A DNA stretch of 7,997 nucleotides from Escherichia coli (GTDB lineage Bacteria; Pseudomonadota; Gammaproteobacteria; Enterobacterales; Enterobacteriaceae), in the NCBI RefSeq assembly GCF_003334335.1, contig NZ_QOWQ01000069.1; one strand, given 5' to 3'. A model generated the notes under the pieces. The model saw only the letters and a list, made by a program, of their open reading frames with translations, was not told where the DNA came from and did no database searches. Numbering within the stretch: the first letter of the stretch is position 1; each line of letters opens with the position of its first letter. This document shows positions 2,894 to 2,952 of the stretch, one piece after another. The translations under genes were made by a program, and so were the position numbers.

Positions 2894-2952
2894 ATGTGCA
2901 TATGCTCAAAATAATATTTAAATAGTATTAATTAAATTAGCATTTGCACAAT
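2894..2952. promoter_or_regulatory. Inverted repeat in the garD/garP divergent control region (candidate regulator-binding sites)
   Basis: Left arm ATGTGCATATGCT (2894-2906) and right arm AGCATTTGCACAAT (2939-2952) are near reverse complements (TGTGCA...TGCACA), separated by about 32 bp of extremely AT-rich DNA. The left arm contains the self-complementary GCATATGC. Confidence 0.35.

Follow-up and report, generated by a model that had tools for sequence, protein, structure and literature searches.

Candidate paired operator boxes for the sugar-diacid activator CdaR in the garD/garP divergent control region of Escherichia coli

Comparative analysis of promoter sequences suggests that the two arms of an inverted repeat in the divergent control region between garD and garP of Escherichia coli are probably two operator boxes for CdaR (SdaR), a sugar-diacid activator of the PucR family, with the proximal box placed for class II activation of garP and the distal box for cooperative binding. 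The element is carried by exactly those promoters that make up the published CdaR regulon, together with that of cdaR. This regulon, as reported by Monterrubio (2000) and relayed in two later papers that cite that work (PMC4551912, PMC8170033), consists of garPLRK, gudPXD, and garD, with cdaR being autoregulated. The layout of this candidate operator pair is an ordinary one.

The window, that is, the whole stretch of 7,997 bp analyzed here, covers the garD / garP-garL-garR-garK (garPLRK) locus of E. coli K-12. It runs as the reverse complement of strain MG1655 (MG1655 coordinate = 3274907 + 3078 - window coordinate), and its garD/garP intergenic region is 100% identical to that of MG1655. The 481 bases around the repeat, which show the same 100% identity, are present in 5,418 of the 5,426 complete E. 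coli genomes. A GarD search with one genome per species yielded 80 Enterobacterales loci and one Pasteurellaceae locus. The 46 Enterobacteriaceae sharing the divergent garD-garP layout were aligned, and four promoter sets were stacked on the -10 hexamer, namely 51 garP, 13 gudP, 13 garD (from species outside Enterobacteriaceae), and 9 cdaR promoters; all four are gap-free when anchored in this way. The features discussed below are collected in Table 1.

Table 1. Features of the garD/garP region in window coordinates; positions relative to a start refer to predicted starts.
Feature	Coordinates	Strand	Description
garD	1132-2703	-	523-aa ORF
Likely garD extended -10	2785-2793	-	TGACATTCT; assigned from geometry; start predicted near 2778
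Strong CRP site	2812-2827		TGTGATCAATGTCAAT; centre 2819.5; serves garD rather than garP
Site A	2873-2888		TGTGCTTTAGCGCGCA, family consensus TGTGCATCAGCGCCCA; 21-22 bp upstream of distal box
Candidate distal box (left arm; site B)	2895-2908	+	centre 2901.5, ~-84.5 of predicted garP start
A/T-rich spacer between boxes	2909-2936		27/28 A/T in E. coli; length fixed, sequence drifting
Candidate proximal box (right arm)	2937-2953	+	TTAGCA-TT-TGCACA + ATG; centre 2943.5, ~-42.5; at -35 place
garP -10 hexamer	2974-2979	+	TATACT; 100% conserved in 51 species; start predicted from hexamer near 2986
garP	3078-4412	+	444-aa ORF

The repeat described in the initial annotation is confirmed as a sequence: two arms of 12 nt, TGTGCATATGCT (2895-2906) and AGCATTTGCACA (2939-2950), are complementary at 11 of 12 positions (92%) and enclose 32 nt (2907-2938), of which 30 are A or T. 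When the 374-bp intergenic region was shuffled 500 times with its dinucleotides preserved, 29 of the shuffled sequences contained a 12-nt repeat complementary at 11 or more of its 12 positions with a spacer of 0-60 nt, and 3 of the 500 did so when an arm was also required to contain at least 5 G/C, as the real arms do. Thus, the repeat is only moderately unusual by sequence alone, and it is the conservation of the arms that raises it above chance.

The 46-species alignment resolves into sharply bounded conserved blocks separated by garD-garP DNA that drifts. These blocks comprise the strong CRP site, GAATGTCAGG at 2786-2795, which overlaps the likely garD -10, site A, the nearly invariant left arm extended to TGTGCATATGCTCAA (2895-2909), and, in the region of the right arm, AATTGAGC and ACAATG, with the invariant TATACT downstream. 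Both arms are at fixed positions, and the 115 bp upstream of the -10 align without gaps in all 51 garP promoters. Across this set, mean identity to the consensus is 1.00 for the -10, 0.85 for the left arm, 0.77 for the right-arm element, and 0.46 for the part of the spacer between -66 and -53; site A, at 0.86, is conserved like the arms. Position by position, the conservation of the distal box (in %) is T90 G92 T92 G94 C92 A88 | T82 A71 | T88 G92 C78 T67 C71 A94.

Each arm is a 14-bp near-palindrome in its own right, TGTGCA-TA-TGCTCA (2895-2908) on the left and TTAGCA-TT-TGCACA (2937-2950; reverse complement TGTGCA-AA-TGCTAA) on the right. Across the family, the two share the consensus TGTGCA-WW-TGCTCA; they are arranged head to head with the better TGTGCA halves facing outward, so that together they look like a longer inverted repeat. 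The box centers, 2901.5 and 2943.5, are 42 bp or four helical turns apart and fall at about -84.5 and -42.5 of garP as counted from the -10 TATACT. In E. albertii, both central dinucleotides have changed (TA to TT and TT to AA) and all four half-sites are kept, a pattern that agrees with a 6-N2-6 site. Compared with the perfect dyad TGTGCA-NN-TGCACA, the left arm matches at 11, the right arm at 10, and the Salmonella cdaR box at all 12 of the 12 positions; the class means are 9.9 for garP distal, 9.0 for garP proximal, and 10.6 for cdaR proximal boxes, with a weaker fit of the gudP proximal boxes (6.5/12). The whole 59-bp repeat was also considered as a single operator and rejected, and each arm is treated as a separate box, because cdaR promoters carry the proximal one only.

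In the distal box, TGTGCA is nearly invariant. In the proximal box, the outer parts, TTGAGC and CAATG, are better kept family-wide than the TGCACA highlighted in the initial annotation. That half has given way to other sequence in many members of Enterobacteriaceae (Enterobacter, Lelliottia, and others), where TTGAGC and CAATG alone are left, so that the palindrome model misfits some of the orthologues.

At the garP promoter, the right arm ends at 2950-2953, where it borders on or partly covers a -35 of very poor quality (ATGATT, 2951-2956), and TATACT, the sole good -10, follows 20 nt after CAATG; this CAATG-N20-TATACT arrangement is fixed across all garP promoters. A simple promoter scan of positions 2650-3130 detected no full sigma-70 consensus promoter, which agrees with activator dependence. 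Both the contact of the right arm with a weak -35 and the geometry of an activator-dependent promoter, as initially described, are confirmed here, with an invariant -10 and a box at -42.5. With the start predicted from the hexamer, the combination of a good -10, a poor -35, and a box centered at -42.5 is the standard class II activator arrangement. The Cappable-seq supplement has no entries near the predicted starts of garP and garD (MG1655 coordinates 3274999 and 3275207, respectively), an absence that says little, since standard media do not induce the gar genes.

Several additional sequence features accompany this promoter. A direct repeat, GAGTTCATTG / GACTTCATTG, is located at 2987-2996 and 2766-2775, just downstream of the two predicted starts, and the stretches ATTTCATTG and AATAATAAAAAT in the garP leader (~3036-3050) are partly conserved across genera. 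The arrangement TGAGCAnnnnnACAATG-N20-TATACT is kept in loci where garP is away from garD (L006, L016, L021, L033, L038, L052, L056, and L037). In species of this kind, such as Salmonella arizonae and Enterobacter hormaechei, it points away from garD and so would drive whichever gene replaces garP there.

The distal element at -84.5 is orthologous between the garP and gudP promoters and is followed in garP by a partly conserved A/T run, AAAATAAT. Over the interval from -77 to -50, the A/T fraction is 0.96 in the window, and in the 51 species it varies between 0.54 and 0.96 around a median of 0.79. Within the spacer, a 12-nt overlapping A/T palindrome (AATAATATTTAA / TTAAATAGTATT, 2910-2929) is conserved in Escherichia only.

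Upstream of the distal box, the position of site A (center -105.5) is occupied by a canonical CRP site in the garP promoters of Rahnella, Brenneria, and Sodalis, and in all gudP and distant garD promoters. By a CRP matrix derived from 39 sites of the Footprint-seq study, with a lowest training score of 10.1 bits, E. coli site A reaches just 5.3 bits; it matches the box palindrome at 8-9 of 12 positions. Site A was rejected as a clear third CdaR box in view of this partial match and of the canonical CRP site at the homologous position elsewhere; it may be a CRP site that has degenerated or decayed, may be a third and weak box for CdaR, or may combine the two.

Beyond garP, the proximal element TTGnGCAnTTGCACAATG-N20-TAT(A/G)CT is found at identical spacing upstream of cdaR (9 species), gudP (13 sequences), and garD outside Enterobacteriaceae. 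Thus, the presence of the same half-site at other CdaR operons, which had been named as a check on the initial proposal, is upheld at E. coli cdaR, at gudP, and at the distant garD promoters, and not at E. coli garD, which is reported to be CdaR-dependent and has no proximal box of its own, with the candidate CdaR boxes lying more than 100 bp upstream. In the case of E. coli cdaR, GCATTTGCACAATG lies upstream and agrees with the right arm over all 14 of its positions; the -10-like hexamer TATGCT comes after a gap of exactly 20 nt. The class consensus is cTtTGtGCAtTTGCACAATG-N20-TATGCT, with TAT(G/T)CT across Salmonella, Dickeya, Pantoea, Yersinia, Serratia, and others, and cdaR promoters lack a distal box and contain a CRP site near -81.5. 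This CRP site, TGTGAACTTCACCACA (2357-2372 in locus L002), was newly reported by Footprint-seq (PMC12871828); it is kept in 9 of the 9 cdaR promoters examined, with its center ~39 bp upstream of that of the proximal box.

Upstream of E. coli gudP, the arrangement is TGTTGTGTTGTTGCACGGTG-N20-TATACT, and the center of the distal element, CCAGGGCTAATGCCAAAA, lies 42 bp upstream of that of the proximal one by hand count; the same center-to-center distance of 42 bp is seen in E. coli garP and in Yersinia garP. In 13 loci, from Pectobacterium, Brenneria, Serratia, Dickeya, Pantoea, Erwinia, and Enterobacillus, garD faces gudP instead of garP. The gudP promoters of these loci follow a common plan, with a CRP site at -105.5, the distal box TAtGtGCAaaTGCCAtAAA, ~28 bp of drifting sequence, the proximal element, N20, and TATAMT, and the garD promoters opposite them carry GGTCAnTTGCAcAATG-N20-TATACT together with a strong CRP site at ~-105.5. 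The box is also present at the garP promoter of Yersinia and at the garD promoter of Gallibacterium (Pasteurellaceae), where the copy is TTAGGCATTTGCACAAT. The gene for CdaR is next to garD in Gallibacterium (60% identical), Yersinia, and Serratia inhibens. For CdaR homologues at a greater distance (47-59% identity; L088-L091), neither a clear TGTGCA-NN-TGCACA box nor CAATG-N20 was found near the genes, one of these contigs being without the relevant upstream DNA.

Scoring matrices derived from these other promoters lead back to the two arms. A matrix made from the 9 cdaR promoters alone places the right arm at the top of the whole window on both strands, with 17.2 bits compared with 9.5 for the runner-up. 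A second set of matrices, from whose training all garP promoters and all E. coli sequences had been excluded, was applied to both strands of the window, with ~420 kb of DNA from the flanks of the 80 loci as the background. The proximal matrix of this set again has the right arm (2934-2953) as its top match, at 11.0 bits. The distal matrix, trained on gudP and non-Enterobacteriaceae garD distal elements only, has the left arm (2892-2911) as its top match at 14.8 bits, a score reached at about 1 in 830,000 background positions (p ~1e-6), and its second match in the window is the left arm again, read on the opposite strand. Moreover, the distal matrix recognizes the cdaR proximal box in reverse, at 13.8 bits, so that the distal and proximal elements are a single motif placed in opposite orientations. 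The distal matrix also gives 13.8 bits to a 20-bp inverted repeat, CAGGCAAATGCCAGTAAAAA ... TTTTTACTGGCGTTTGCCTG, located between yqcA and gudP (locus L001, 10441-10490). This repeat looks like the yqcA terminator hairpin, and its likeness to the box is probably coincidental.

The garD side of the region is organized around the strong CRP site, which is the top CRP-matrix match in the window (14.9 bits), is kept across Enterobacteriaceae, and is among the sites listed by Footprint-seq, at MG1655 coordinate 3275166 with a Kd of 1.9 nM (PMC12871828). It lies ~41.5 bp upstream of the garD start predicted from the extended -10; with CRP at this position and no proximal box of its own, E. coli garD looks like a class II CRP promoter. 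Outside Enterobacteriaceae, the position near -42.5 of garD is occupied by GGTCAnTTGCACAATG, in the arrangement GGTCAnTTGCACAATG-N20-TATACT (Pantoea, Erwinia, Pectobacterium, Dickeya, Rahnella, and Serratia, among loci L060-L081), and in Enterobacteriaceae by a CRP site close to the consensus. The pattern resembles a swap of regulators at a single promoter position, with a CdaR-type box in one group and a CRP site in the other. An exact 10-mer of the proximal box, TTGCACAATG, overlaps the garD start codon (TATTGCACAATGGCC; 2701-2710, minus strand) in Escherichia only, other genera having TACTGGACAATGGCC there; it may be due to chance or may be an extra CdaR site within the garD leader.

With respect to the protein, CdaR is 82-92% identical across Enterobacterales and has a C-terminal HTH_30 domain (Pfam); at this level of identity, conserved sites are expected. 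The CdaR site was described as still undetermined as of 2020 (PMC7652997), and the literature searched, a body that lacks the primary regulon paper (Monterrubio, 2000; PMC111340), contained no CdaR footprint, EMSA, ChIP, or SELEX. The assignment of the boxes to CdaR draws on regulon membership, and we infer CdaR as the protein, the transcription starts, the polymerase contact, and the cooperativity alike from sequence comparison. On the scheme that we propose, each 14-bp box would have the size expected for one CdaR dimer. The proximal box would stand in place of the missing -35, and inducer-activated CdaR bound there would bring in RNA polymerase as class II activators do. A further CdaR unit, binding cooperatively with the first, would occupy the distal box; a distance of 42 bp, or four helical turns, puts the two boxes on the same helix face, and the easily bent A/T-rich spacer may aid bending between them. 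One step further upstream, near -105.5, there would be a degenerate CRP-type site.

The likeness between the half-sites of the boxes and those of CRP raises the question of whether the left arm is instead a CRP site (TGTGC-ATATGC-TCAAA, center ~-83.5, class I), in which case only the right arm would belong to CdaR and the repeat would be a by-product of this likeness. We regard this as unlikely. By the CRP matrix, the left arm scores 9.3 bits, second in the window, which is below the training minimum of 10.1 bits and above the 7.0 bits of the Footprint-seq cdaR CRP site; furthermore, the true CRP site of cdaR promoters is near the position of the garP distal box, and the regulon as a whole is rich in CRP sites. 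However, the fifth position is C in ~92% of the 51 species rather than the A preferred by CRP, A6 and the TGC that fall inside the unconstrained 6-bp center of a CRP site are conserved as well, and the orthologous distal elements have median CRP scores of 2.6 (garP), -5.4 (gudP), and -3.1 (distant garD) bits. In addition, a CRP-type site is already present further upstream, at -105.5, in both the garP and the gudP promoters. It is possible that the E. coli left arm is read by both CRP and CdaR.

That both arms are positionally fixed in more than 50 species, with the spacer sequence drifting between them, makes it very improbable that the repeat has no sequence-specific protein partner, whether as a repeat that arose by chance in A/T-rich DNA or as a hairpin or cruciform element of DNA or RNA, even if an equally good repeat arises in 29 of the 500 shuffles and single-strand folding is unremarkable (z = -2.1). 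A hairpin would be expected to show compensatory change and none is seen, the proximal arm losing TGCACA in many genera with the distal arm unchanged. The arms lie upstream of both predicted starts and hence are probably not transcribed, which speaks against an RNA; the sole Rfam match is to a microRNA family and is sub-threshold (E = 0.68, 14.4 bits compared with a gathering cutoff of 51), and a scan of 2650-3130 found no terminator-like site. A 12-bp stem with a 32-nt loop makes a poor cruciform. The RNA and cruciform readings were rejected on the sub-threshold Rfam match, the unremarkable folding, and the conservation without covariation. As for the identity of the protein, the link between motif and CdaR goes through regulon membership only, so the boxes might be operators of another regulator acting on gar, gud, and cdaR, such as a CytR-like or unassigned factor; TTGCA in the boxes resembles CytR-type half-sites, which we take to work between CRP sites. 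The set of promoters that carry the element nevertheless coincides exactly with the CdaR regulon and the autoregulated cdaR, cdaR accompanies garD in Gallibacterium and Yersinia, whose garD and garP promoters, respectively, carry the box, and a box at -42.5 without a -35 suits the known activator, so that we give another regulator only a slim chance.

Returning to CdaR as the most probable partner of the boxes, we tentatively entertain a broader reading, which we consider possible yet less likely to hold than to fail, namely that CdaR promoters have a rigid plan of a CRP site at -105.5, a box at -84.5, and a box at -42.5, free of indels from Pasteurellaceae to Escherichia, in which CdaR and CRP sites could have switched owner and the E. 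coli left arm may serve both proteins. TGTGCA of CdaR and TGTGA of CRP are one base apart, so sites could have changed owner in the course of evolution. Were the rigid three-part layout real, it would imply a defined higher-order CdaR oligomer, similar to the GabR octamer, that bridges the boxes over bent A/T-rich DNA.

In E. coli, CdaR belongs to a small group of regulators whose regulon and inducers are known yet whose operator is unmapped; it also has wide use in biosensing of glucarate (PMC4551912, PMC7544201). The site model, a 14-bp box in two copies 42 bp apart with the proximal copy at -42.5, could be of use for the rational trimming and tuning of CdaR-responsive promoters. Furthermore, galactarate and glucarate use matters for colonization of the inflamed gut by E. 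coli and Salmonella (PMC11775122), which lends some physiological interest to the CRP/CdaR wiring at these promoters. Beyond the site model and this physiology, the architecture is that of a conventional bacterial promoter.

Among known systems, a precedent in method is the reconstruction of the SdaR regulon across gamma-proteobacteria by Rodionov et al. (2010), who predicted a candidate site and deposited it in RegPrecise (PMC2996990); Shewanella grtP-garK is the only case for which sites are given there. The regulator family and the comparative approach are the same as here. The resemblance to CRP sites is close at the level of the half-site, TGTGCA differing from TGTGA by one inserted base, with the E. 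coli left arm reaching its 9.3 bits, and where Pantoea, Pectobacterium, and Rahnella have a CdaR-type box at garD, Enterobacteriaceae have a CRP site. In contrast, the boxes have a 6-N2-6 rather than a 5-N6-5 structure, their conservation pattern is not that of CRP, and the orthologues score poorly as CRP sites. The overall layout recalls the uhpT promoter, where CRP binds at -103.5 and the specific activator UhpA, a response regulator, occupies the DNA from ~-80 to -32. Both promoters have a CRP-type site (at ~-105.5 in garP) followed by activator sites that extend to the -35 region, and a good -10 without a -35; unlike uhpT, garP would depend on an activator of a family unrelated to UhpA, and its upstream CRP-type site is degenerate in E. 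coli.

Finally, the characterized operators of the PucR family are palindromes of 17-24 bp, such as the 17-bp site of PutR and the 24-bp site of AdeR, both of Bacillus subtilis, and for GabR of C. glutamicum, an octamer, the interval from -87 to -33 contains two 21-bp inverted repeats, both of which are needed for strong binding (PMC7652997). The candidate boxes at garP are shorter (14 bp), lie 28 bp apart instead of being adjacent, and are unrelated in sequence; nevertheless, CdaR shares the HTH_30 domain with this family, and the garP boxes span -91 to -36, very close to the interval covered by the two repeats of GabR.
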